Position numbers and translations under genes: made by a program
From: Candidatus Micrarchaeota archaeon
Lineage (GTDB): Archaea; Micrarchaeota; Micrarchaeia; Anstonellales; JAHKLY01
Assembly: GCA_020854825.1 (NCBI GenBank)
Contig: JAHKLY010000004.1
Location: 1 to 30,598 of the forward strand
Length of the DNA: 30,598 nt
Reading direction: 5' to 3'
Part shown: piece by piece, positions 1-16,565 of the stretch
Position numbering within the stretch: position 1 is the stretch's first letter
How the letters are laid out: each line of letters begins with the position of its first letter
Notes under the pieces: model-generated
Told to the model about the DNA's origin: nothing
Databases searched by the model: none
What the model saw: only the letters and a program-made list of their open reading frames with translations

Positions 1-3000
1 GTATTTGGAGAATCAGGATATAAGATAACCCAAAAATATTCTGAAACATTAATATTTTTACTTCCAATAGTCCCATCAGCATTAGTTCCCAATGCAACCA
101 AGTGATGAGTAGAATTAACTGTATGTGTGTGGTGAAAAGCAATATTTCTATCTAATGTTGCAACTAATTCTGTGTTGTCTTTCGAACGCCAATCTTCAGT
201 AAAATAATCTAATCCTATTTGGTCTGAACCATTACCAATTATATAAACAGATAAATCAACTGAATTACCTGCAGCTGCAATTGAATTAAATTCGATCCAA
301 AAACTCATGTTATTTTCCATATCAAAAGAATTTGTAAAATTAAATAAATGATAATTTCCCCTCCACATTCTATTCTCATCTGGTTCATTATACCAGGTGA
401 TATCTGATTCAGAGAAATAAATTTCTGGATAAATATGATCTAGATAAATATTCTCTTTTAACCAAATTCCTTCTCCTTGATCCACCATTGGGGAAGATAG
501 TTCTTCACTTCCGCAAGTTCCATTGATATAATAATCCCAGCATGCAATACCTTCTCCATTAATTGCAGAAACATTAACAGTAACTGAGGACAATTCGGTT
601 GTGTTGGTGATGTTTGCGGTTATATTATAAGGTAAAAATCTGGAAATATCTAAATCTGGAATTAAGGAAACTTCATTAATTGTTGATCCTCCATCTCCTC
701 CCCCGTAACCACTGAATTCAGTCACTGTGAACCAGAAGTGTGTTTCATTTTCTCCAAATGAAGGATAATATGAAACTGGGTTTGAATCCCATGTACCACT
801 GCAATTGCCTGTTGCAAACGACCAATCTGAACATTTGAAAATGTAATTAATATTCAAATCTTGTTTTTCAAATATTAAAGTTGCATTTTCAAAAGAAATA
901 TTAGTTCCATTTAAAGCAATAATTGAAGATACATTATCAACATTAGATGGAAGATCACCAGTATAATTTTCAACAAATTGTGGAATTATTTGTATCTCTG
1001 AATTTGATATATTAATATTTCTTAAAATTATTGTTTCTGAATCTGGGATTTGTACACTTAACGAATAATTACTATTTTCTCCCACTCCTCTTGACAATCC
1101 CCCAGTTAGAGATCTATTTTCAAGAGCATATCCAGCTGCATCATATAATTGAAAACTATAATTAGTTAAATTTGATCCAGTCCCATCAATTGAATTAACA
1201 ATTAAAGTTGCAGTAGTAGGTTCAACTTCTCTATCTGCATGGCTTGCAGATGATGCTGGTTGCCTAACACCAGAAATTTCATCATTGACTTTAACAACCC
1301 ATTTAACATCATTTGATGGGTTAAAATCTAATGGAATAACATTGACTGAACGATAAATCCCTTCACTTACTCTAAAAAGATTTCTGCTTGGGTAAGCAAC
1401 TGTTGAAACTGGATTTATATCATCATTGCTTGCATATAAACTAACCTCAATTTCAGTAACATCCTCTTGACTGCCATCTTTTGTAATATCAATTTTAAGA
1501 ACTGCTGCATCCCCCACTAGATAATACGGGCCTGGAGTTCTATAATTTTCTGGAGTAAGGGTTGTTATATATTTTATTAATGTCGTATTAATTATTGATT
1601 CATTATCTGACCCTTGAGTAGTATATGAATTTGTAAAATTTTCAGCAGTGACTTTTAATTCAAATTTACCAGCATCAAACACAGTTTTATCAAATATATA
1701 TACACAATATCCACTCTCGTTTGTTGAATTATCTCCTTGATATGCATCATTTACATAAAAACTGCAATTTGCTAACACAGGTTTAGAGATATTATTAACA
1801 TCAAAAACTTTTGCAATTATTGTTTGTGTATTAGAAACATAACTTTTTGAGTCTTCACCTGCATCATTTTTTCCCCGCACTATTTCATCTCCGTCTAATG
1901 GAGAAATAATATTTATTTTTGCATATCCCACAACCAAAACTTCAGATGTATTTTCTTTTGATGAATTTAAATATCCATCAGAACACCAAACTTCTGCAGA
2001 CCAGTTTTCTCCAGAAGATGTTTCTGAATTATCTAAGGCATAAACTAATGTGTTTTCTCCGCTTATTACTGCTAAACTACGAATACTTCCGAAAACTGTA
2101 TTATCTACATACATTTGAACATAAGCAGTCAAAGTGCCACCGATATCAACATCTGAACAAGTAACATTAATCAAAAGGTCATCTTCAGTAGAAGGTAAAA
2201 CTGGAGTAATATTATAATAATCTAAAGTTGGAGGAGTATTATCTATTGTTCTAGAAGTAGTGTTTTGTTTTTGTGTTGTGTAATTCCCATTTGAACACCA
2301 AACTTCTGCAAGCCATGATTCTCCTGGAGTGGTATTTCCAGAATTTAAAGTATAAACAATTGTATTTTCCCCACTAACTACTTCTTGTGATTGATTCTCT
2401 CCATACAACACACCATTTTTATACATCTGAACAAAGACAGTAAGTGTAGATGCTGGAATTGTGCTATGGCAGGTTGCGTTTACGATTAAATCTTCGTCTG
2501 TTGTTGGTTCTAAAGGAGTTAAATTAATATCTCCTAAATATGGCTTTATATGGATTAATAATTCATCTATCTCTGAATAATATGAAGCTGTTATCCATGC
2601 ATTAGAACGTGCAACATTAGAAATCCGTATTTCATCAACAGAACCAGAAAAACGTTTTCCATTATCTCTGTCTTGACCTATATAAATATTATCTGTACTA
2701 CTAACACTACCCACTACTTCATCTCCAGGACTATAATCCGTTAAATTAACACGTAAATATGCTCTATTTTCAATTCTTCTACCTACAAAATATTGCCATT
2801 CATTAGTAATATTTTCTCCAAAAGAAATACTTTGAGCATTGTTTTCAAGGTATCTAAACGACAACATTGGAGCAATTCTAACTTGAACTCCATCTCTAGT
2901 TGCAGGATCATATTGAAAAAATAATCTCTTATCACTATTTTCTGAAGGGTCCCCTTTAATAAACATCTCCAATGTAAAATCTGAGGAATATGTAATGGTT

Positions 3001-5633: not shown

Positions 5634-6179
5634 TTAATATTTTAGAATCACACAACTTGATCTGCTATTTGGTTGTCCTTTGTATTTATCTAATTTATGT
5701 TCAGTTTCAATAATGGAAGTTGCTAAAACTTTTCCTTTAAAGAGTTTAACTAACTCTTTGGGAACAGGTCTCCACCCATTATCAATAGGAAATGCATGAT
5801 ATGGATAATTATTAGGTACTGAAACTATAAGAATTCCATTTTTATTTATTAATTTTTCAATATTTTTAACTGTTTTTCCCAATTCTAAAATTGGAATGTG
5901 TTCTAATAAATGAGTTGCTAATACAATATCAAATTTATCTTTAATTTTAATAGGTTTGATAATATTATGTAAGTAATCTGGTTTTGTTGATTTTTTTATA
6001 TCCATTGTTTTAATTTGAATATTTTTAGAATTTAAATAATCATAAAAAGTTTGATTCCATGGTTGTTTTTTTGTTCTGTATTCTAAACTTTCTGAACCTA
6101 TATCTAAACCTGTTTTGAAATTTTGATTTAAAATTTTGTCTATTTTTTTCGTTACCCATTCAATTTCTTCTGTCCACAT
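5634..6179 (-). CDS. Class I SAM-dependent methyltransferase
   Basis: Motif I LDIGS, then FDIVLATHLLEH and LINKNGILIVSVP, typical of Methyltransf_11/23-like proteins. Confidence 0.8.
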   Translation of the reverse strand: MWTEEIEWVTKKIDKILNQNFKTGLDIGSESLEYRTKKQPWNQTFYDYLNSKNIQIKTMDIKKSTKPDYLHNIIKPIKIKDKFDIVLATHLLEHIPILELGKTVKNIEKLINKNGILIVSVPNNYPYHAFPIDNGWRPVPKELVKLFKGKVLATSIIETEHKLDKYKGQPNSRSSCVILKY

Positions 6180-6358: not shown

Positions 6359-6478
6359 CTTTTTCTTTTTCTAAAAGAAAAAGTATGGCATTCAGCGCTC
6401 CAGGTTATCATCACTCTTTACCTATTTTCTTTTTTCCCGCAACGTGCGGCTTTTTTCTTTTTTAAAAGAAAAAAGGGG
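6359..6478. repeat. Two copies of an A/T palindromic hairpin element (TTTTCTTTT..AAAAGAAAA)
   Basis: Copies at ~6359-6384 (downstream of the sRNA) and ~6448-6478 (inside it). Related copies at 16309-16343 and 16422-16458. Confidence 0.75.
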
Positions 6479-6504
6479 CCGTCAGTAAACCTGCGTCTCT
6501 TCAT
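6392..6504 (-). ncRNA. Box C/D 2'-O-methylation guide sRNA for pre-tRNA-Trp (predicted Cm34 and Cm39)
   Basis: Minus strand: box C ATGAAGA (6504-6498), 12-nt guide GACGCAGGTTTA, D' CTGA (6485-6482), 67-nt spacer, C' GTGATGA (6414-6408), 12-nt guide TAACCTGGAGCG, D CTGA (6395-6392). The guides form 9 and 10 bp with the pre-tRNA-Trp in this window. The N+5 rule lands on C39 and C34. Confidence 0.9.
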
Positions 6505-6594
6505 ATAAACATAATTAAGTTAAAACACATTAAAAATATATTGATTAAAAAAGATCAAAATAATAAAAAAAGAAAAAGTTGTGTGATTTAAAAT

Positions 6595-6985: not shown

Positions 6986-9900
6986 TTATACTAACCTCTT
7001 ACCTTTTAAAGGATTTTTTTTAATTTGTCTTTTTCTATATGCAATAAATAAAATAAATACAATTATCACAAATAGAACAATCCCTATTATTAAGGAAGAA
7101 ATAACTGGTTTTTCTTCTGGTGTTTCTTCAATTGTTGGAGGTACATATGGTTTAGTTGTATCTATTGGTTTTTCATCTGGTATTTCTTCACTTGGTTTTT
7201 CTGGTACTATTATTTCTTCTTCTAATTCTTCTTCATCTATTTGTAATTCTTCTTCTTCAGTTGTTATTGGACTCTGTCCTACTGGTCTTGCACCACCACC
7301 AGTATAACTGCTTCCTCCAGGTGAGCCTCCATCTTCTTCAGTTTCTTCACCAAATAATGCATAAGTACTGAAATGAGTTACATTACCCCAAACATGTCTT
7401 GGGTTAACCTTGATTATACCTTGCTGAATAACTAATTCCCATTCATCAGATGTTTCATTGAAATAATACATTCTTAGTGAATCCTCATCAATATTCAAGT
7501 CATTAAGTTCAGTTGGATTGTAATATACTCTTATGATTGCCCATGAAAGATATGCAGTATCTTTTACTTCAATAGTTATACCTTTGAAAGGAACTTTGCC
7601 TATAGGTAAATCGGGATTTGTATCATTGACTTCTGTTGAATTTAATAATCTAACAGAAATAGAGAAATTATATGTTTCGTTTGCTGTTAAGTCTATTTCT
7701 AAATCTGAATTTGGTAATTCAAAAGTTTCTGTTTCATTTTCTTCAACTTCTATTCCTAATATAATATCTGTATAATTTCCATCTATGTCCCATTCACTAG
7801 TTATATTTGTTTCTGGATTTTCAATTGATAAAGTGCAATTATCAAGCTCCAAATAACCACCGTCAAACACAAGTTCACCCCTAAACGAAATTGCATTATT
7901 TCTACACAATGCATATTCATCTATTGTCCATATTGTTAATGATTCTTCTCCATCGTAGTTTATCCCATAATCTCCATTATTAATAAATTGACTGTTCCAT
8001 AAATCGAGATTTGAGAAAGAATTCATAATTCCGGTATCATCATCGCATACTCCATCATTATTCTCTAAAATTGTATCAACCACTGTAAGATCTAAATAGA
8101 TGCCCACATCCGGTGAATAGAAATATATGCCATCACAGGAATTGTTGTGAATATAAGAATCTGATATGAATGTGTTGTTTGCATCATCCGCATATATTCC
8201 ATAAACAAAATTTTCTATTTCACAGTTTATTATTTCAGTATTATTGAAACCTCTGATATTGATACCTATACCTGCATTATCTCCTGTGATTGAATACCCT
8301 TGACAATCAATTGTAATATTATCTGCAATAACATTTAAACCTGAATCTGCAAAACAAGAAAGATTTGCATCTAAACTAATATCAGAATCAACTTCATATC
8401 CACAATAAACCCCTGAGGGTTCAACATCTGTCCAAGGATGCCAATCAGTACCATTTCCAATCCAATAATCTCCAAGTGTTTCATGACGGAAAGGATAATC
8501 ACGTCCTACATCTGCCCAATTATCATCATTGAGATCAAATATTTCAAATAATTCCCATGAGCCTGTGCCGTTGGCAAAGTAATACCTGTTTCCGGAGGTT
8601 GAATCATTGTAATCGCTTGTGTCAGAATAGTCTTCAACCCACAAAGCACCAGTGATATTGTTGTGTAAAAACGATGAATTAATACCTAGATTATAAATGA
8701 CTGCCCACTCATCAAAACTAGTTAAACTTGAATTAATAAGTCTATTATTTGCACCCTCAATAACTACAGTCTCATACATTTCGGTAGATAGCGTCATGTT
8801 TGAAATATTATTATATGAAGAATTCTCATCAACAAATATGGAAACATACCACGCTAATGAATCGCTGTTATTAATGTTTGAATAACTTGTATTGAACAGC
8901 CAGATTCCACTATTGTTAATATAAGAATCTGTTAAATTTGAATAATCTGCATTGCAAAGGATTATTGCAGAAGCTTCAATACTATCTAAATTCTGTGCAC
9001 CATTGTAAAATAAGATAGGTCTGTCATCTGTTCCATTTACATTTGTAAAATTATTTGAACATACTTCTCCTCCCATTACAATATCTCCTCTACCTATAAA
9101 AACAGAATCAGTGAAGTTATTGCCAGTTGACTCTTCTAGGACTAAACCTACAAAATCACTTTCACCAGTTACATTAATAAACGTAGAATTAAAACTACCT
9201 AACAATGAAAATGCGCCTGCTGTAAAATCAAATAATGCATCAGTTTCAGTTATTGAAATAATATTTTCAAACGTGTTGTTTAAACCAAAATATACTAAAA
9301 CTCCAATCCCAGAAGCCGAATATGAGGAGATGTTAGTAAAAGTATTATCTGTTGAAATATATGAAAATAAAGGCACACTTTGATTTGAAAGATAATTTAA
9401 ATTAATTTCTGAAAATACTGTGGCGCTTGTATTGTAATTCAAAATTCCTGCAATAATAAATTCAGATTCATCTATTTCCCCATATGAAATTGATACATTA
9501 TGAATATTTGATTCATCAACAAAATATGCTAAAACTCCCATAGCATAATTTTCTATAGTACAATTTTCTAACCTAAAGTTTGAAACATTATATGGATACA
9601 CTCCAATACCAGTTCCATTACCGAGTAATGTTGAACCATTACAGTCAATGTAAACATCTGACACATTCACAACTAAAGGCATATCAACATATTCATCAAA
9701 ACAAAGAGATACACTTTCGTTTATGACATAATATATACTATACAGTTCTCCTTCATCTAATAGAAACATGTCGAGCTCATCAGGGCCAACAGTGTAAACC
9801 CTGCTACCCCAAGTTGAATTGTCTGAAAGGTTAACGCAGGTGGACGGGACGTAAGAGCAGTCGTGATTACAGGTAAGCAAGGTGTTACTGTCGTCATCAA

Positions 9901-12900
9901 ACAGGATGTTACAGATGTTGTCGCCTTCATTATTATTGGAGTTAGAAGATAGGTAAATGTCCCTATCTGAGTTTTCACATGCGGTATTGTTGGTAAGGGT
10001 ATTGCTGTTGGAGTTAGAATCTAGAAAGATGCCTGCCCAGTTGTTGGGTGCAGTATTATTGGTGAGGGTGTTATTGGAACTGAGTTCGAGGAAGATACCT
10101 TCTGTATTTTCGGAAGCGTTGTTGCTGGTGAGAGTGTTGTTGGAACTGGAGTAGAGGTAGATGCCGAAATCGTTAGAACTGGCTGTGTTGCTGGTGAGAG
10201 TGTTGTTGGAGCTGGAGGAAAGGTAGATGCCGACATTGTTGTTGGAGGCTGTGTTGTTGGAGAGGGTATTGTTAGAGCTGGACCATAGGTAGATGCCGTC
10301 CCAGATGTTAAAGGTGACGGTGTTGTTGGTGAGGGTATTGTTAGAGCTGGAGTCGAGGAGGATGCCGTAGCCGTTGTTGGAGGAGGCTGTGTTGTTGGTA
10401 AGTGTGTTGGAGCTGGAGGTGAGGTAGATTCCTGTGTCTTCATTGGAGCTGGCGGTGTTGTTAGTGAGGGTGTTGTTGGAGCTGGAGACGAGGGAAATAC
10501 CAGTCGCGTAATCAACCACTTGGCAATTGGAGATGTTGACAAACTCCTTGCTGTTGATAGTGATACCATCCCCGTCATCATCTGTTCCATTAATGATAGA
10601 ACCATTACACTCCAGGTAGCAGTGGGTGCAATTGAAGAAAAGCGCAGCTTGGCCGGAACCAGCATTAAGTTCATAGGTGTCAGTACATAAGGTAACATTG
10701 CCGTTAACGTACAAGATCCCGTCCGGCCCACTGACATTTGCCACTAACCCCTGGTAAGTGCTCTCGTTCAGCAAGTCGACGCAGCCGGAATAGGGCGTGG
10801 GCGCAGTGTAATTGATGGTGAAGGTCCAGTTCGTTTCGTCACCCCAGGCATTGTTTGAGGCGTTTGCTGCGCCAATGCAATAGACATTCCAGATATAAAC
10901 ACCATTAGCTAATGGCTCGACAGTGCACGAATCGCCGGTTGTTTCATTCGTAGCGCAGTCGCCTGTCCAGCTGCCGGAAATGTTATGGTAAACAGTGCAG
11001 TTGCTTTCGATGTTTACGGTGTAATTTAGCGTGGTCGCGTTTGTGTCCAGTGTTTCAGAATCTGTTGGATAAACTAAGGTTACGTTTACTGGTTCTTCTG
11101 GACCTGTCACATTAACCGTGAATGTCCAGTTTGTTTCACCCCAGGCATTGTTTGATGCATTTGAAGAGTCAACACAATAAACATTCCATTCATAAACCCC
11201 GTTTTCCAATACATCAATTTCACAAGATGCGCCTTCTGTATTATTTGTTGCACAGTCAGCGCCCCAGCCTGTTTTGTTATGGTAAACAGTGCAGTTTGCT
11301 TCAATGTTAACAGTATAATTTAGGGTTGTTGAGTTTGTTTCAATTATTGCTTCATTATCAGGGTATGTTAGAGTGACGTTGATTGGTAAAGAAGGTTCAG
11401 GTTCTTCTTCACATACGTCCGTACATTCATCATTGGAATAACAGCTATCGCCACCTAATGTGTAGCCGGTTACCTGCTCTGAACCAAATTGATGATTCAA
11501 GTATGGCGGGTCTGCATAGTTTGGGCCGACAATTATTCCAAATGTATCATTGAAAATATCGTTTACTGCGAAATTATTTCCATCGCCATTCCCTTCAAAA
11601 ACAGGCACTGGATGTTCTACATAACACGCTAATCCCATTCCTTCTAATGCATCACAAGTAAGTTCTGTTGATTCTGCAATATAAAATGTAGCATTATCTG
11701 AGCCGCCCAGGAGGGTAAAATTTATACAGAACACAAAATAATTTTCAGATGTGTTAAAATTAGCATATTCAATTAATTGTCCATCAATTAAAATCTGCTC
11801 CAGATTTCCATCACCCACCATTGCATGAAGCATATATACTGAATTATTGCAATTTCTTTCACCTATAAATATTGGTGAATGCGAAACTGAATATTCGGAA
11901 ATTTGTATCTCACCGCAAACATCATCACAAGAAGGCTCAAGCAGGCATACGCCGCAAGTTGCAAACCTGTCAAAATATGTTGAATTGTCTGGGGTGGAAG
12001 TTGTATAATTAGTATTTGACCAATTATTCTCAGGGTAATCCTCATCCTCTATATCTTTGCCTAAATTGCCGCAGGCAGTATTATCAATTAAAGTATTTCC
12101 ATTACTGTTCAATGATAATAAAAATCCTTTATTGGTATTATAACTTGCTGTGTTGTTTATAAATTCACAATCAGTGCTTCCAACTATGTGGAAACCATAA
12201 TTATTCACTATTGCAGTATTATTTTCAAATGTTGTTGATGAAACAGAAGACAAATGAAAACCGTAATTGTTTCCGATTGCAGTATTATTTGCAAAAAGAC
12301 CGCCCGAATTGCTGCATGTATGCATACCATAGGCCGTGTTGTTCATTGCTGTATTGTTTATCATATCATTTCCGAATCCACCTTCAATTTCAAGGCCGTC
12401 ACCAGTATTGAATGAAGCATTATTATTCATTAAAGAAATGAAACTGCTGTCGCGCACATAAACTCCTCTGCCGCCGTTTGACAAAAGAGAATTATCAAAA
12501 ACAGTATAATTGATACCAATACGTATTGTGATGCCGTCATTTGTATTGTCTTTAATTATATTATTCTGTATTAAACCATAATCTGAATTTCCAGTGACAT
12601 TAATTCCTGTTGAAAATGATTCTATTGTGCAATTCTTTATTGTTATATTATTGCGCCCGTCTATAAGAATTCCATTGTCATTGTTCTGCCCTGATATTTT
12701 CTCGCCGGCACAGTCAAGTGTAATGTTGTCCGCGCCGATTATTAATCCTGTTCCTTCGCATGAAACCAAGTTTTCGGTTAATGTCAAATCTTCGGTTATT
12801 GTGTCACCGCAAGAAACTTCTTCTCCTCCACAAGTCCCAGTCTGATTAAAATATGTTGAATTAGCAGGATCGGATGTCTGGTAATTTGTTGAAAGCCAAT

Positions 12901-14650
12901 TATTGTTAGGATATAACAAATCAGATATGTCGTATACTCCCTCTTCTTCTGCCACGTTATTAAAACAAACACTATTGTCTTCAAATTCATTATCATCCGA
13001 CCCTTCATCAATATAAATGCCTTCATAAAGATTATAATTGAAAGTGCATGAAGTTACGGTGTTATTTGGACTGCCATACATGTATAATCCATAACCATTC
13101 TCTTCTCCATCACTATTATTATTTGCAATTGATTGGGTTATATTATTACCATTAGATTCATACAACTGTATACCTGAATAAAAGTTATAATTGAAAGTTG
13201 AATTGTAAATTGTATTATTATGGCTTGTTTCAAATGAGATGCCATTAACATTATTTGAACTGTTGCAGTTTGTTATTGTGGCATTGTCAGTCCATAATAG
13301 GTATATGGCGCTAATATAATACCCATTAATAAGAGAGCCAATGACTGTTACATTATTAATAAATGAATCATCTGCATTGCATAAGAATAATTCTGAGATT
13401 GTTTGGTCTTCAAGGATTATTGTTTCGTTGGAAAAAATAATAGGCAAGCCGCCTTCGCCAGTGTTGTTTGCAATGATATTATTGCATTGGTATTCGCCAT
13501 TTTCAGCAGCCAAATAAACAGGCGCTCCCGTTAAGTTTGAAAATGTGTTATTTATTACTGTGTTTCCAAAAGCGCGGTAAAACATTATGCCGCCTGTACC
13601 GCTAACAAAATCATTATATGCGACAAATGTTCCGGATATATTGTCCCTAATCTCAATATTAGTATAATATTCTGGCGCTCCAAAAGTGTTATTTAAAACA
13701 TCTGTGTTATTTGAGTATAAGGAAAGCGGAAACAGATTATTTGTGAATGTATTGTTTACCAAAGAAGAATTATCTGACCCTGCTTTCAGTTGTGCACCAT
13801 AATAATAATCAATAATATTACAATTACTAACAGTCATGCCAGTATATCCATTATTATAAATCCCTTTATAACAGCAATCACCAGTACTGCTGCTGATTAT
13901 TGAGTTATTACAGTCAATAACCACATCATTTGCGCCGATGGTTAATGCGTTTACATTTCCAAATTCGTAGGTATCCTCACAAAGCGTGATTGAGTCAAGC
14001 ACTGTGAATCCAGCAGTCATGTTTCCTGTTATTTTCCCAGCATAAGTGTCTGAATCAGTTAAATTGACACATGACTCTTCAGGAACATAACAATAACTCA
14101 TCTCATCATCAAAATCGCAAGTTCCTTCTTCTTCTACCAAAATCCAGGTACAAGTAGCATAAAGATTTCCATAAGCCCCAATTCCGATAAATTGAAAATA
14201 GGATGAATCACACAACCCTTCACTTAGAGAACCACAATTCTCAATATATTCTCCTTCACATGTTGGACATACACTACAATCTTCAGGACAAGAATCACAA
14301 GATTCAGCACACATAGTATCACAAGACGCATCTCCGCAGAATAATTCTTCACAAGGGTCTGGTTCTGGTGGTTCTTCACAAGAATTGCACCAGTCATCAG
14401 CATAACAGCCTCCACCATCAGTAAAATCACAGCCTGATTCGGGACATAATGATCCCTCCTCATCCCACCAGCATGGTGGTGGGGGGAAAGGATCACACCA
14501 TATCCCACAGGCATCGTCTTCGTAACAATCAGCACCATCAGTATATGGACACATACCTCCGCAGGTTCCATCATCCTCAAAACAATCGGCAAAACTCAAT
14601 CCTCCTAAAAATAAACATACTATTAATGATACTAAAAAAATCTTATTCAT
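6986..14650 (-). CDS. Giant surface glycoprotein: Cys/acidic-rich N-terminus, multiple NosD/CASH right-handed beta-helix domains, duplicated Ig-like module, PGF-pre-PGF-like C-terminal domain, TM anchor
   Basis: Signal peptide; many GIxL..S.NN....N repeats and N-x-S/T sequons; LRMYYFNE...W...VWGNVTHFSTYAL; acidic/Pro linker; C-terminal TM helix with basic tail. Confidence 0.85.
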   Translation of the reverse strand: MNKIFLVSLIVCLFLGGLSFADCFEDDGTCGGMCPYTDGADCYEDDACGIWCDPFPPPPCWWDEEGSLCPESGCDFTDGGGCYADDWCNSCEEPPEPDPCEELFCGDASCDTMCAESCDSCPEDCSVCPTCEGEYIENCGSLSEGLCDSSYFQFIGIGAYGNLYATCTWILVEEEGTCDFDDEMSYCYVPEESCVNLTDSDTYAGKITGNMTAGFTVLDSITLCEDTYEFGNVNALTIGANDVVIDCNNSIISSSTGDCCYKGIYNNGYTGMTVSNCNIIDYYYGAQLKAGSDNSSLVNNTFTNNLFPLSLYSNNTDVLNNTFGAPEYYTNIEIRDNISGTFVAYNDFVSGTGGIMFYRAFGNTVINNTFSNLTGAPVYLAAENGEYQCNNIIANNTGEGGLPIIFSNETIILEDQTISELFLCNADDSFINNVTVIGSLINGYYISAIYLLWTDNATITNCNSSNNVNGISFETSHNNTIYNSTFNYNFYSGIQLYESNGNNITQSIANNNSDGEENGYGLYMYGSPNNTVTSCTFNYNLYEGIYIDEGSDDNEFEDNSVCFNNVAEEEGVYDISDLLYPNNNWLSTNYQTSDPANSTYFNQTGTCGGEEVSCGDTITEDLTLTENLVSCEGTGLIIGADNITLDCAGEKISGQNNDNGILIDGRNNITIKNCTIESFSTGINVTGNSDYGLIQNNIIKDNTNDGITIRIGINYTVFDNSLLSNGGRGVYVRDSSFISLMNNNASFNTGDGLEIEGGFGNDMINNTAMNNTAYGMHTCSNSGGLFANNTAIGNNYGFHLSSVSSTTFENNTAIVNNYGFHIVGSTDCEFINNTASYNTNKGFLLSLNSNGNTLIDNTACGNLGKDIEDEDYPENNWSNTNYTTSTPDNSTYFDRFATCGVCLLEPSCDDVCGEIQISEYSVSHSPIFIGERNCNNSVYMLHAMVGDGNLEQILIDGQLIEYANFNTSENYFVFCINFTLLGGSDNATFYIAESTELTCDALEGMGLACYVEHPVPVFEGNGDGNNFAVNDIFNDTFGIIVGPNYADPPYLNHQFGSEQVTGYTLGGDSCYSNDECTDVCEEEPEPSLPINVTLTYPDNEAIIETNSTTLNYTVNIEANCTVYHNKTGWGADCATNNTEGASCEIDVLENGVYEWNVYCVDSSNASNNAWGETNWTFTVNVTGPEEPVNVTLVYPTDSETLDTNATTLNYTVNIESNCTVYHNISGSWTGDCATNETTGDSCTVEPLANGVYIWNVYCIGAANASNNAWGDETNWTFTINYTAPTPYSGCVDLLNESTYQGLVANVSGPDGILYVNGNVTLCTDTYELNAGSGQAALFFNCTHCYLECNGSIINGTDDDGDGITINSKEFVNISNCQVVDYATGISLVSSSNNTLTNNTASSNEDTGIYLTSSSNTLTNNTASSNNGYGILLDSSSNNTLTNNTVTFNIWDGIYLWSSSNNTLSNNTASNNNVGIYLSSSSNNTLTSNTASSNDFGIYLYSSSNNTLTSNNASENTEGIFLELSSNNTLTNNTAPNNWAGIFLDSNSNSNTLTNNTACENSDRDIYLSSNSNNNEGDNICNILFDDDSNTLLTCNHDCSYVPSTCVNLSDNSTWGSRVYTVGPDELDMFLLDEGELYSIYYVINESVSLCFDEYVDMPLVVNVSDVYIDCNGSTLLGNGTGIGVYPYNVSNFRLENCTIENYAMGVLAYFVDESNIHNVSISYGEIDESEFIIAGILNYNTSATVFSEINLNYLSNQSVPLFSYISTDNTFTNISSYSASGIGVLVYFGLNNTFENIISITETDALFDFTAGAFSLLGSFNSTFINVTGESDFVGLVLEESTGNNFTDSVFIGRGDIVMGGEVCSNNFTNVNGTDDRPILFYNGAQNLDSIEASAIILCNADYSNLTDSYINNSGIWLFNTSYSNINNSDSLAWYVSIFVDENSSYNNISNMTLSTEMYETVVIEGANNRLINSSLTSFDEWAVIYNLGINSSFLHNNITGALWVEDYSDTSDYNDSTSGNRYYFANGTGSWELFEIFDLNDDNWADVGRDYPFRHETLGDYWIGNGTDWHPWTDVEPSGVYCGYEVDSDISLDANLSCFADSGLNVIADNITIDCQGYSITGDNAGIGINIRGFNNTEIINCEIENFVYGIYADDANNTFISDSYIHNNSCDGIYFYSPDVGIYLDLTVVDTILENNDGVCDDDTGIMNSFSNLDLWNSQFINNGDYGINYDGEESLTIWTIDEYALCRNNAISFRGELVFDGGYLELDNCTLSIENPETNITSEWDIDGNYTDIILGIEVEENETETFELPNSDLEIDLTANETYNFSISVRLLNSTEVNDTNPDLPIGKVPFKGITIEVKDTAYLSWAIIRVYYNPTELNDLNIDEDSLRMYYFNETSDEWELVIQQGIIKVNPRHVWGNVTHFSTYALFGEETEEDGGSPGGSSYTGGGARPVGQSPITTEEEELQIDEEELEEEIIVPEKPSEEIPDEKPIDTTKPYVPPTIEETPEEKPVISSLIIGIVLFVIIVFILFIAYRKRQIKKNPLKGKRLV
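10020..10505 (-). repeat. Tandem 22-23-aa beta-helix repeats (GIYLxSSSNNTLTNNTAxxN), about 7 units, similar at DNA level
   Basis: gtgttgttgg..ag.gt.ttgtt.gagctgga recurs every ~66-69 bp. Confidence 0.85.
10805..11390 (-). repeat. Direct duplication of a ~93-aa Cys/Trp module
   Basis: PINVTLTYP..TTLNYTVNIEANCTVYHN..NNAWGETNWTFT is followed by PVNVTLVYP..TTLNYTVNIESNCTVYHN..NNAWGDETNWTFT. Confidence 0.85.
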
Positions 14651-14753: not shown

Positions 14754-16253
14754 ATGGCAAATTCAAAACATTTAACAGAATTAATATCATTTTTACAAGA
14801 TAAAGGATATGTTTGGGGACCAGAACCAGAGATATATAATGGGTTATCTGGATTTTATACTTACGCACCATTAGGCAAATTATTGAAAAATAATATTGAG
14901 AATAAAATAAGAGAATTTTTTATTAAAAATGAATTTTGGGAAGTCGAGTGTCCAATTATAATGCCAAAAATAGTTTGGGAGGCATCAGGGCATTTAGATG
15001 GGTTTACAGATTCAATTATTTTTTGTTCAAAATGCAACGCAAGTTATAGAGCTGATAAACTTTTAGAAGAACAATTACCTAACCAAGGACATACTATTAA
15101 TGATATACTTCCTTTAATAAAAGAAGGAAAATTAAAATGTTCATCATGTAAAGGAAATTTTAAAATGGAAATATTATCTCATGAACTAATGATGAAAACT
15201 ACGGTTGGTTTAGATTTAGAAGCATATAATAGACCTGAAACAGCTACAACAACTTATTTGCCATTTAATAGATATGTAACATTTTTTAGAAATAAAATTC
15301 CATTTGGTGTTTTTCAAATTGGAAAAGCATTTAGAAATGAAATTTCTCCACGACAACATATTTTAAGAATGAGAGAATTTACACAAGCAGAAGCACAATT
15401 AATTATTTTTGACAAAAATGAATTTGAAAAATTTGATAAAATAAAAAATAATAATATCTTTTTATGGTCTGCTGAAAATCAATTAAATAAAAAAGATCCT
15501 TTTGAAATCAAAATGTCAGACGCAATAACAAAAAAAATGTTTAAAAACAAAGCATATGCTTGGACAGTTTATTCGGCTTATGAATTATTTTTATCTTTTG
15601 GAATTCCTAAAGAAAATATCAGAGTAAGACAACATAGAAATGATGAAAAAGCATTTTATGCTGATGATGCATGGGATATTGAAATAAACCTTAAATCATT
15701 TAATTGGGAAGAAGTTTGCGGAATTCATGATAGAACAAATTATGATTTAAAACAACATATGCAAAAATCTGGAAAATCTTTTGAAATATTAAATGAGAAA
15801 ACAGGAAAAAAAGAAATTCCCCACATTTTAGAAATTGCATTTGGAACTGATAGGCCTGTTTTTGCATTATTAGATTTATTTTATTCAAAAGAAGATAAAG
15901 AAAATGGAAAAACTATGTTTAAAATCCCATATTTAATGGCACCTATAAAAACTGCGATTTATCCATTAGTTAAAAAAGAAGGATTACCTGAATTAGCACA
16001 AAACATTTATGAAAAATTATCAAAACATTTTGTATGTGTTTATGATGAATCTGGAAGTATAGGTAGAAGATATCTACGTGCTGCAGAACAAGGAATACCC
16101 TTTTGTATTACAGTTGATTTTGATACTTTAAAGGATAATACAGTAACTATAAGAGATAGAAATACTGAAGAACAAAAACGTATAAAAATAGATAAATTAA
16201 TTGAGATAATTGATGATTTAATCTCAGAAGAAACTAGTTTTAAAAAAGTATAA
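14754..16253 (+). CDS. glyS: Glycine--tRNA ligase (archaeal/eukaryotic homodimeric type)
   Basis: EIYNGLSGFYTYAPLG, ASGHLDGFTD, RPETA, QIGKAFRNEISPRQHILRMREFTQAE, and the anticodon-binding domain SGSIGRRY..GIPFCITVDFDT. Confidence 0.97.
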   Translation: MANSKHLTELISFLQDKGYVWGPEPEIYNGLSGFYTYAPLGKLLKNNIENKIREFFIKNEFWEVECPIIMPKIVWEASGHLDGFTDSIIFCSKCNASYRADKLLEEQLPNQGHTINDILPLIKEGKLKCSSCKGNFKMEILSHELMMKTTVGLDLEAYNRPETATTTYLPFNRYVTFFRNKIPFGVFQIGKAFRNEISPRQHILRMREFTQAEAQLIIFDKNEFEKFDKIKNNNIFLWSAENQLNKKDPFEIKMSDAITKKMFKNKAYAWTVYSAYELFLSFGIPKENIRVRQHRNDEKAFYADDAWDIEINLKSFNWEEVCGIHDRTNYDLKQHMQKSGKSFEILNEKTGKKEIPHILEIAFGTDRPVFALLDLFYSKEDKENGKTMFKIPYLMAPIKTAIYPLVKKEGLPELAQNIYEKLSKHFVCVYDESGSIGRRYLRAAEQGIPFCITVDFDTLKDNTVTIRDRNTEEQKRIKIDKLIEIIDDLISEETSFKKV

Positions 16254-16348: not shown

Positions 16349-16565
16349 TGGGGCCACGGGGATTTATTCACTCCTCTTTCTTATTCAAGAGAAAGATACC
16401 TATTTTCTTCCTTTTTCGTTGAGGTTTTTCTTTCTTTTCTTAAAAGAAAGAAAAAGGTCATTGAACCCCGACCCGCAGGTTTCTTACGTAGCTCACTCTT
16501 AACAAACTATAGATAGTTTGATAAAACCTGGAGCCTGCTACGCTACCAAGTTACGCTATAGCCCC
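16349..16565 (-). tRNA. trnW: tRNA-Trp(CCA) with two introns (37/38: 16527-16481, 47 nt; 58/59: 16460-16364, 97 nt)
   Basis: Exons 16565-16528, 16480-16461 and 16363-16349 join into a 73-nt cloverleaf. Acceptor GGGGCTA/TGGCCCC, anticodon stem GCAGG/CCTGC with loop CTCCAGA, T-stem CGGGG/CCCCG with loop TTCAAAT. The 3' CCA is not encoded. A TTTATA element lies ~20-25 nt upstream. Confidence 0.93.

Follow-up and report, generated by a model that had tools for sequence, protein, structure and literature searches.

Archaeal tRNA-Trp genes almost universally retain an intron, and the usual explanation for this retention is that the intron itself encodes a guide RNA. The locus described here raises the question of whether such a guide can reside in a gene of its own and still read the unspliced tRNA. 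It lies in the genome of a Candidatus Micrarchaeota archaeon (GenBank assembly GCA_020854825.1, order Anstonellales; 828 kb, 28% G+C, 7 contigs, 97.6% complete), referred to below as the source genome, and the window that we analysed is the entire contig C7 (JAHKLY010000004.1), 30,598 nt in length. An initial annotation of this window proposed that a free-standing sRNA with two guides pairs with both ends of the intron in pre-tRNA-Trp, that this guide has left the intron, and that the methylation it directs precedes splicing.

A candidate box C/D sRNA gene

Archaeal box C/D sRNAs are bounded by a C box (RUGAUGA) at one end and a D box (CUGA) at the other, and have a D'–C' loop of a few nucleotides that forms a K-loop; a long D'–C' spacer is unusual among archaeal C/D RNAs in general. 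In a 415-nt gap separating two minus-strand open reading frames we find the candidate gene exactly where the initial annotation had placed it, with all four boxes on the minus strand and two guides of exactly 12 nt, as expected for this class of RNA (about 12 nt; Table 1). The D box conforms to the consensus and both internal boxes are present (D' CTGA and C' GTGATGA). Two features had gone unmentioned: the C box, ATGAAGA, is one base off the RUGAUGA consensus, and the D'–C' loop is not short but 67 nt long.

Table 1. Features of the candidate sRNA gene, the tRNA-Trp gene and related introns in the source genome (window positions unless a contig is named)
Feature	Position	Strand	Remarks
Candidate box C/D sRNA, C box to D box	6392..6504	-	113 nt; sole four-box match in the genome
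C box ATGAAGA	6498..6504	-	Variant; 11/34 homologous units likewise have TGAAGA as C box
D' guide	6486..6497	-	12 nt; positions 2-10 pair with last two intron-1 bases and A38-G44; position 5 faces C39
D' box CTGA	6482..6485	-	Sequence pattern
D'–C' spacer	6415..6481	-	67 nt; GC clamp, T/A-rich hairpin (~6451-6474), GC hairpin (~6436-6450), A-rich tail
C' box GTGATGA	6408..6414	-	Sequence pattern
D guide	6396..6407	-	12 nt; positions 2-11 pair with G31-G37 and intron-1 +1 to +3; position 5 faces C34
D box CTGA	6392..6395	-	Sequence pattern
T/A-rich hairpin with T-run, 9 nt past the D box	6359..6382	-	Possible transcription stop
A/T-rich TATA-like block, ending 24 nt ahead of the C box	6529..6540	-	Putative promoter element
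tRNA-Trp exon 1, positions 1-37	16528..16565	-	C34 = 16531
tRNA-Trp intron 1	16481..16527	-	47 nt; canonical 37/38; no C/D boxes; guides pair with bases +1 to +3 and with the final two
tRNA-Trp exon 2, positions 38-58	16461..16480	-	C39 = 16479
tRNA-Trp intron 2	16364..16460	-	97 nt; T-loop 58/59; T/A hairpin element inside; bulge-helix-bulge central helix 4 of 4
tRNA-Trp exon 3, positions 59-73	16349..16363	-	Parsed gene structure
T-loop intron family, examples	C2:75332-75392, C6:5949-6004, C3:60262-60319, C3:128162-128216, C2:61545-61598, C2:112828-112853, window 16364-16460		

A strict four-box pattern (RTGAWGA, 11–13 nt, CTGA, 3–110 nt, NTGAWGA, 11–13 nt, CTGA) matches this locus alone on both strands of the 828 kb, and the reversed-sequence control gives no match. 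The covariance-model check that had been suggested for the region was less rewarding, as Rfam finds no family at its gathering threshold anywhere in the window, and with permissive E-values the sRNA and tRNA-Trp loci give chance-level matches only. The best C/D scores at the sRNA are far under threshold (SNORD41, 14.3 of 41 bits; snoPyro_CD, 12.8 of 45 bits). The TATA-like block and the bases that follow it are common to a homologue from another genome of the order (G021).

Directly downstream of the sRNA there is a gene for a SAM-dependent methyltransferase of 180 aa (window 5634–6179, minus strand), and between the sRNA and tRNA-Trp genes one for a beta-helix/NosD-repeat protein of 2553 aa (6986–14650, minus strand). 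A partial second copy, with the C34 guide and D box followed by a conserved hairpin, is present at C1:~250–300 (minus strand) of the source genome and at C2:11830–11851 (L103) of a genome from the same genus (G001); G001 has a proper GTGATGA box there and the source genome has none, and there is no D' unit in either.

Of the sequencing runs listed for the locus, 6 are DNA runs from sludge metagenomes and none is an RNA run. Four of the 6 were examined; they yielded only short contigs of the source organism, in one run, together with a relative's version of the sRNA that resembles that of G021, and in these data, which are of DNA only, no joints were seen. Over window 6471–6542, runs X1, X3, X5 and X6 hold the 5' half of the sRNA of a related organism, with 9 of 72 bases different, which runs on into a spacer of the G021 type.

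Pairing of both guides with pre-tRNA-Trp

The tRNA-Trp(CCA) gene is located on the same strand about 10 kb upstream of the sRNA and is the only tRNA-Trp gene, as judged by the single 5' half in the genome. Its cloverleaf, read by hand, is regular once both introns are removed. Because of these two introns the gene is overlooked by ARAGORN, which calls no tRNA in the window, and by the Rfam tRNA model, which scores 13.2 of 29 bits at the locus. A class II aminoacyl-tRNA synthetase gene (14754–16253, plus strand) adjoins it. Neither TGATGA, TGANGA nor CTGA occurs in intron 1 or intron 2, which bears out the earlier description of an intron lacking intact C/D boxes and extends it to the second intron; the guide is indeed a separate gene.

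Pairing of the D guide across the exon 1/intron 1 junction amounts to 10 bp, and that of the D' guide across the intron 1/exon 2 junction to 9 bp, with C34 and C39 respectively at +5. Both the base pairs and the coordinates agree with the initial annotation, and both guides show at least 9 bp of complementarity with the target nucleotide at +5 from the D or D' box. A single guide match of 9–10 bp is by itself not significant, being common in the source genome: there are 11 places where the D guide, and 16 where the D' guide, can form 9 or more Watson-Crick pairs around position 5, and shuffled guides give means of 3.3 and 5.9. When both guides are required on one strand within 100 nt, tRNA-Trp is the only place in the genome, with 0.021 pairs expected.

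The proteins of the RNP are encoded in the source genome, with fibrillarin, Nop5 and the L7Ae family all represented, the last by two matches of which one lies beside Nop5. In named genomes (Aenigmatarchaeota, Hadarchaeales, Iainarchaeum and other MAGs) no relative of the fibrillarin exceeds 52% identity.

Dependence of pairing on the intron

All 54 of the tRNA-Trp genes that we could parse in the order have the 37/38 intron, which ranges from 11 to 114 nt and mostly ends in AGAA. In the 46 rows that combine an sRNA with a tRNA, the helix that the D guide forms through position 5 measures 7–12 bp on the pre-tRNA versus 7–9 bp on the spliced tRNA; the corresponding figures in the source genome are 10 bp and 7 bp. 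If the guide reads the precursor, its positions 9–11 would be expected to follow the first three bases of the intron, and the covariation that had been proposed as a check is found: 49 of 66 such positions in 22 genus representatives are Watson-Crick pairs. Shuffling introns among genera gives a mean of 35.5 of 66 and none of 20000 shuffles attains 49, a signal that is overstated by the non-independence of related genomes.

Individual positions show the same behaviour. Guide position 9 and intron +1 are C-G in 13 genera, T-A in 6 and mismatched in 3. There are double changes, with intron GG and guide CC in G068 and intron AA and guide TT in G071 and G049, and at the other end of the intron a T at -1 in G002 is matched by an A in the D' guide. 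In some lineages pairing with the intron is poor or missing: none of guide positions 9–11 matches in genus g18, and in genera g8, g16 and g30 intron +1 faces the guide in a C.A mismatch. Where position 9 is T, it would also pair with A38 of the spliced tRNA, so that precursor and product are not told apart in those 6 genera; where it is C, it pairs with the intron +1 G and not with A38.

The D' helix behaves differently, being equally long on the precursor and the spliced tRNA (median 9 and 9), because in the latter A36 and G37 stand in for the two final bases of the intron (A-U and G.U). As the D' guide pairs just as well with the spliced tRNA, dependence on the intron would rest on the D guide and C34 only. 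The statement in the initial annotation that the guide still matches the intron ends is correct for both guides in the source genome as far as pairing goes, although only the D guide would need the intron; likewise the proposal that methylation precedes splicing is favoured for C34, but not for C39.

An alternative explanation is that the guide acts on the mature, spliced tRNA-Trp and that its extra pairing with the intron is a coincidence or a relic. The behaviour of the D' guide would be expected from such an arrangement, as would that of genus g18, whose D guide gains no pairing from the intron, and Pyrobaculum sR26 is predicted against mature tRNA-Trp in the portion of that study covered here (PMC6009581). 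However, the three base pairs that the D guide of the source genome would lose on the spliced tRNA, the tracking of the intron start by positions 9–11 across 22 genera, and the C at position 9 in 13 of them, which has a partner only in the intron, make this explanation an unlikely one.

Distribution and variation of the sRNA family

A pattern consisting of C' box, D guide and D box is matched in 64 of 176 genomes of the order, as against 1 of 176 for the reversed-pattern control. About 62 of the 64 look genuine, and the matches in G119 and G121 resemble coding sequence. A wider sample, drawn from the phylum but containing only genomes of the same class, has the unit in 54 of 136 genomes of the order versus 4 of 265 from other orders; G195 and G306, which are flagged as unpublished and have no match, are counted in this sample. 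Viewed in context, the matches are free-standing genes with four boxes.

The other half of the gene, a C box, guide and D' box matching the position-39 region, is recognisable in 34 of the 46 rows. Its C box is TGATGA in 19 of the 34 units and TGAAGA in 11, and its D' box is CTGA in 28; the C' box is TGATGA in 38 of 46 rows and the D box CTGA in 45. The genome of the same genus, G001, retains the same layout as the source genome. The D' guide is unmatched to tRNA-Trp in 11 rows (G027, G040, G071, G087, six genomes of genus g18 and the second copy in G001), and in a twelfth, G013, a D' unit exists in which one mismatch kept it from being recognised by our script. In genus g3, position 7 of the D' guide is mismatched. 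It is thus the C34 guide that stays constant across the family.

Some homologues have the C34 guide together with another D' guide, of the type GCTCG(G)TTTT, which has no match to tRNA-Trp: L008 (G027), L072 (G026), L071 (G126) and L076 (G130). G026 and G128 have three copies each. At L015 (G015), positions 1430–1565, there are two tandem C34-guide units about 116 nt apart, with identical guides and a T/A hairpin element between them.

The D'–C' spacer is very variable. In the 34 homologous units it ranges from 3 to 109 nt, with 3 nt in 6 units and 59–109 nt in 15, so that this family tolerates long structured spacers.

The D'–C' spacer and a tRNA intron repeat

Over 53 nt the spacer of the source genome is 87% identical to the canonical intron of tRNA-Glu(CTC) at C2:220569–220621. 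Its hairpin module recurs in the T-loop introns of many tRNA genes, including intron 2 of tRNA-Trp, and in tRNA 3' trailers. The T-loop (58/59) introns form a family with a T/A-rich hairpin and a CTCAACGAAAAAG-type tail that interrupts many tRNA genes (Table 1) and looks mobile; with introns allowed, ARAGORN calls only 11 tRNAs in this 97.6% complete genome. The splicing endonuclease of the source genome is a single frame of 417 aa with two endonuclease-domain matches (C3:146727–147230; L126), and this two-domain form may relate to the many non-canonical introns.

It is conceivable that the spacer is a true intron, and that the tRNA splicing endonuclease excises it to leave a compact sRNA with a D'–C' loop of 3–4 nt. 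The resemblance to the tRNA-Glu intron, which has a perfect bulge-helix-bulge, would fit with this, as would the many non-canonical tRNA introns and the two-domain endonuclease, and splicing registers can be drawn by hand that link CTGA to GTGATGA through 3–4 nt as in the compact homologues. Excision, if it occurs, would make this the first C/D sRNA gene with an intron. However, when the spacer is shuffled, a bulge-helix-bulge as good as the best one at its ends turns up in 18% of cases in the source genome and in 30–86% in 14 other long-spacer homologues, so that the score is no better than shuffled in 15 of 15. Moreover, the two ends of the spacer pair into a simple stem beside D' and C' in G021, G005, G007 and G001, as would suit a structured insert that is retained. 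We consider excision improbable and read the insert as tolerated and retained, at least as judged from these comparisons.

A second possibility is that the gene is impaired in the source genome, and that the 67-nt insert with its T-runs leaves a short half-mer of C box, guide and D' box or nothing functional at all. The run T6CT4 begins 7 nt past the D' box, and a similar run after the D box would act as a stop; the C box is off consensus; and the closing stem at the spacer ends is absent in the source genome. In addition, no TATA-like block is read at the proper distance before C'. On the other hand, the four boxes and both guides are intact, G001 keeps the layout, and neither the variant C box nor a long spacer is exceptional among the homologous units. 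The spacer T-run could stop some transcripts but cannot be an efficient stop, because transcription has to pass hairpins of the same type in intron 2 of the single tRNA-Trp gene, as in many other tRNA introns. Impairment thus seems to us a poor explanation of the locus. The related possibility of two independent half-mers was set aside, as there is no promoter-like block before C' and the hairpin is read through in tRNA genes.

Genomic linkage and direction of change

Among 46 genomes having both genes, 13 (from 10 genera) carry the sRNA and tRNA-Trp on one contig within 45 kb. The distance is within 14 kb in 12 of these pairs and within 150 nt in 3, and 12 of the 13 have both genes on the same strand. 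This linkage is far above chance for genomes of about 1 Mb and is evidence independent of base pairing. In three genomes of genus g6 (L065 in G006, L064 in G072 and L066 in G052) the sRNA follows tRNA-Trp on the same strand, starting about 50 nt past its 3' end, and the two may form a dicistronic unit.

Other orders of the class have BLAST matches to the tRNA-Trp halves about 60–90 nt apart, and 13 of 21 loci could be parsed to give introns of 59–81 nt, most of them with a TGATGA box. The box is followed by a stretch complementary to U33–G37 and the first two intron bases, which places C34 at +5 from TTGA. The layout of these introns (L151–L173) is a TGAGC motif, a short stem, GATGATGA, the C34 guide-like stretch and an end in ATGAAGTA. 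No standard CTGA D box was seen in them, and their boxes might be completed across the junction of the circularised intron.

As an intron-borne guide is the outgroup state, the free-standing gene of the order looks derived, by parsimony, with the guide having moved out of the intron. The suggestion that the guide left the intron is in keeping with the box-bearing outgroup introns, although the direction of the change is something that we infer. No box vestige is found in intron 1 of the source genome, which in alignment resembles the box-bearing introns of the sister orders only at its ends.

Finally, chance resemblance in an A/T-rich intergenic region, for which the frequency of single 9–10 bp guide matches and the lack of a significant Rfam match might be cited, is contradicted by the comparative data (the order-wide unit against one control match, the covariation and the linkage) as well as by the unique four-box pattern and the convergence of two guides on two known positions of one RNA, and is very improbable indeed.

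A model for methylation of pre-tRNA-Trp

The prediction that this sRNA stands alone and guides both position 34 and position 39 of tRNA-Trp finds support in its conservation, in covariation with the intron, in linkage and in the presence of the RNP proteins. The most likely interpretation overall, and one in which we have reasonable confidence, is that of a trans-acting dual-guide sRNA on pre-tRNA-Trp that was relocated from the intron, with the boxless intron serving partly as its landing site and the spacer being a retained repeat insert.

To what is observed (boxes, complementarity, conservation, covariation, linkage and proteins) the model adds steps that we infer: transcription of the sRNA, assembly of the RNP, methylation, whether it comes before or after splicing, and what becomes of the spacer. 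The sRNA would assemble with L7Ae, Nop5 and fibrillarin, and its D guide would bridge the exon 1/intron 1 junction of the unspliced pre-tRNA-Trp, placing the wobble base C34 at +5 for 2'-O-methylation. The D' guide would present C39 at +5 by pairing along the 3' side of the anticodon stem, and here either form of the tRNA would be usable. Cm34 would most likely be made before splicing, because the D guide has 10 bp on the precursor against 7 bp on the spliced tRNA. The sRNA would then be the functional counterpart of the intron-borne tRNA-Trp guide of other archaea, relocated to its own gene, and the boxless intron 1 would be kept, at least in part, as a landing site for the guide. The 67-nt spacer would be an insertion of the repeat family that also forms tRNA introns, and would most likely be carried in the mature RNA.

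The separation of guide and intron makes a second explanation for intron retention testable, namely that the intron is needed as part of the substrate for wobble methylation; a separate guide that still reads the unspliced tRNA suggests one reason for keeping the intron. A far-reaching version of this idea, which we put forward tentatively and think rather doubtful as a whole, is that throughout the order the tRNA-Trp intron lost its built-in guide, shrinking to as little as 11 nt, and was never itself lost; the separate guide would have co-evolved with the first intron bases, the intron would survive purely as a docking site that forces methylation before splicing, and the guide gene of the source genome would have been colonised exactly at its D'–C' loop by a mobile tRNA-intron hairpin. 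The family is also of interest as a conserved group of C/D sRNAs in small uncultivated archaea, in which only this locus fits the strict four-box pattern. Its D'–C' spacers of 3–109 nt bear on how the C'/D' motif is built, and one repeat family is linked to both tRNA introns and an sRNA gene.

Comparison with known systems

The sR-tMet RNA is reported to read an exon-intron junction. In Haloferax volcanii, sR-tMet (Joardar et al. 2011) is listed as a trans-acting C/D guide for Cm34 of elongator pre-tRNA-Met (PMC4033218, table). Like it, as far as that table goes, the guide of the source genome is free-standing and would act in trans on an unspliced pre-tRNA; unlike it, the guide targets tRNA-Trp and two sites in place of one.

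A functional parallel is the C/D guide encoded in the intron of pre-tRNA-Trp in Haloferax volcanii and, as sR50, in Pyrococcus, which directs modification of positions 34 and 39 (PMC7994747, PMC4090602, PMC11408192 and PMC4033218); this intron-borne layout is described in Euryarchaeota in the portions of the papers covered here (PMC7994747, PMC4090602). The two systems share a dual 34/39 guide that works in trans on an intron-bearing precursor with fibrillarin, Nop5 and L7Ae, and in the source genome too 34 and 39 are addressed across exon-intron junctions. In contrast to what these accounts describe, the guide of the source genome lies outside the tRNA-Trp intron, in a separate gene 10 kb from the tRNA, the intron is boxless, position 39 is C and not U, and the D'–C' spacer is 67 nt long.

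Pyrobaculum sR26 is likewise a free-standing C/D sRNA with a guide to C34 of tRNA-Trp, predicted on the mature tRNA, and the portion of that study covered here describes no junction pairing of the kind that we find (PMC6009581). According to the same study, dual guides to one tRNA are rare, sR46, sR61, sR123 and sR126 being named (PMC6009581). The tRNA-Trp intron of Sulfolobus solfataricus resembles that of the source genome in having no consensus C/D boxes, and positions 34 and 39 are still thought to be guided there (PMC3326292); the complementarity that this source describes, two 7-nt stretches, is, unlike ours, within the 65-nt intron itself. The box-bearing introns of the sister orders share with our candidate a C34 guide that pairs into the first intron bases, but there the element is inside an intron of 59–81 nt, its D-like box is degenerate, and no position-39 guide was seen in the 13 of 21 loci parsed. 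None of the papers within reach of our literature search describes a separate gene whose RNA guides two positions of pre-tRNA-Trp.

Within the portions of the literature covered here, the guiding of positions 34 and 39 of tRNA-Trp, a free-standing guide to C34 (Pyrobaculum) and a trans-acting guide on a pre-tRNA (Haloferax) are thus known already. What is new is their combination in a separate, order-wide dual 34/39 guide that pairs and covaries with a boxless intron and has very variable D'–C' spacers, among them one made up of a tRNA-intron repeat.
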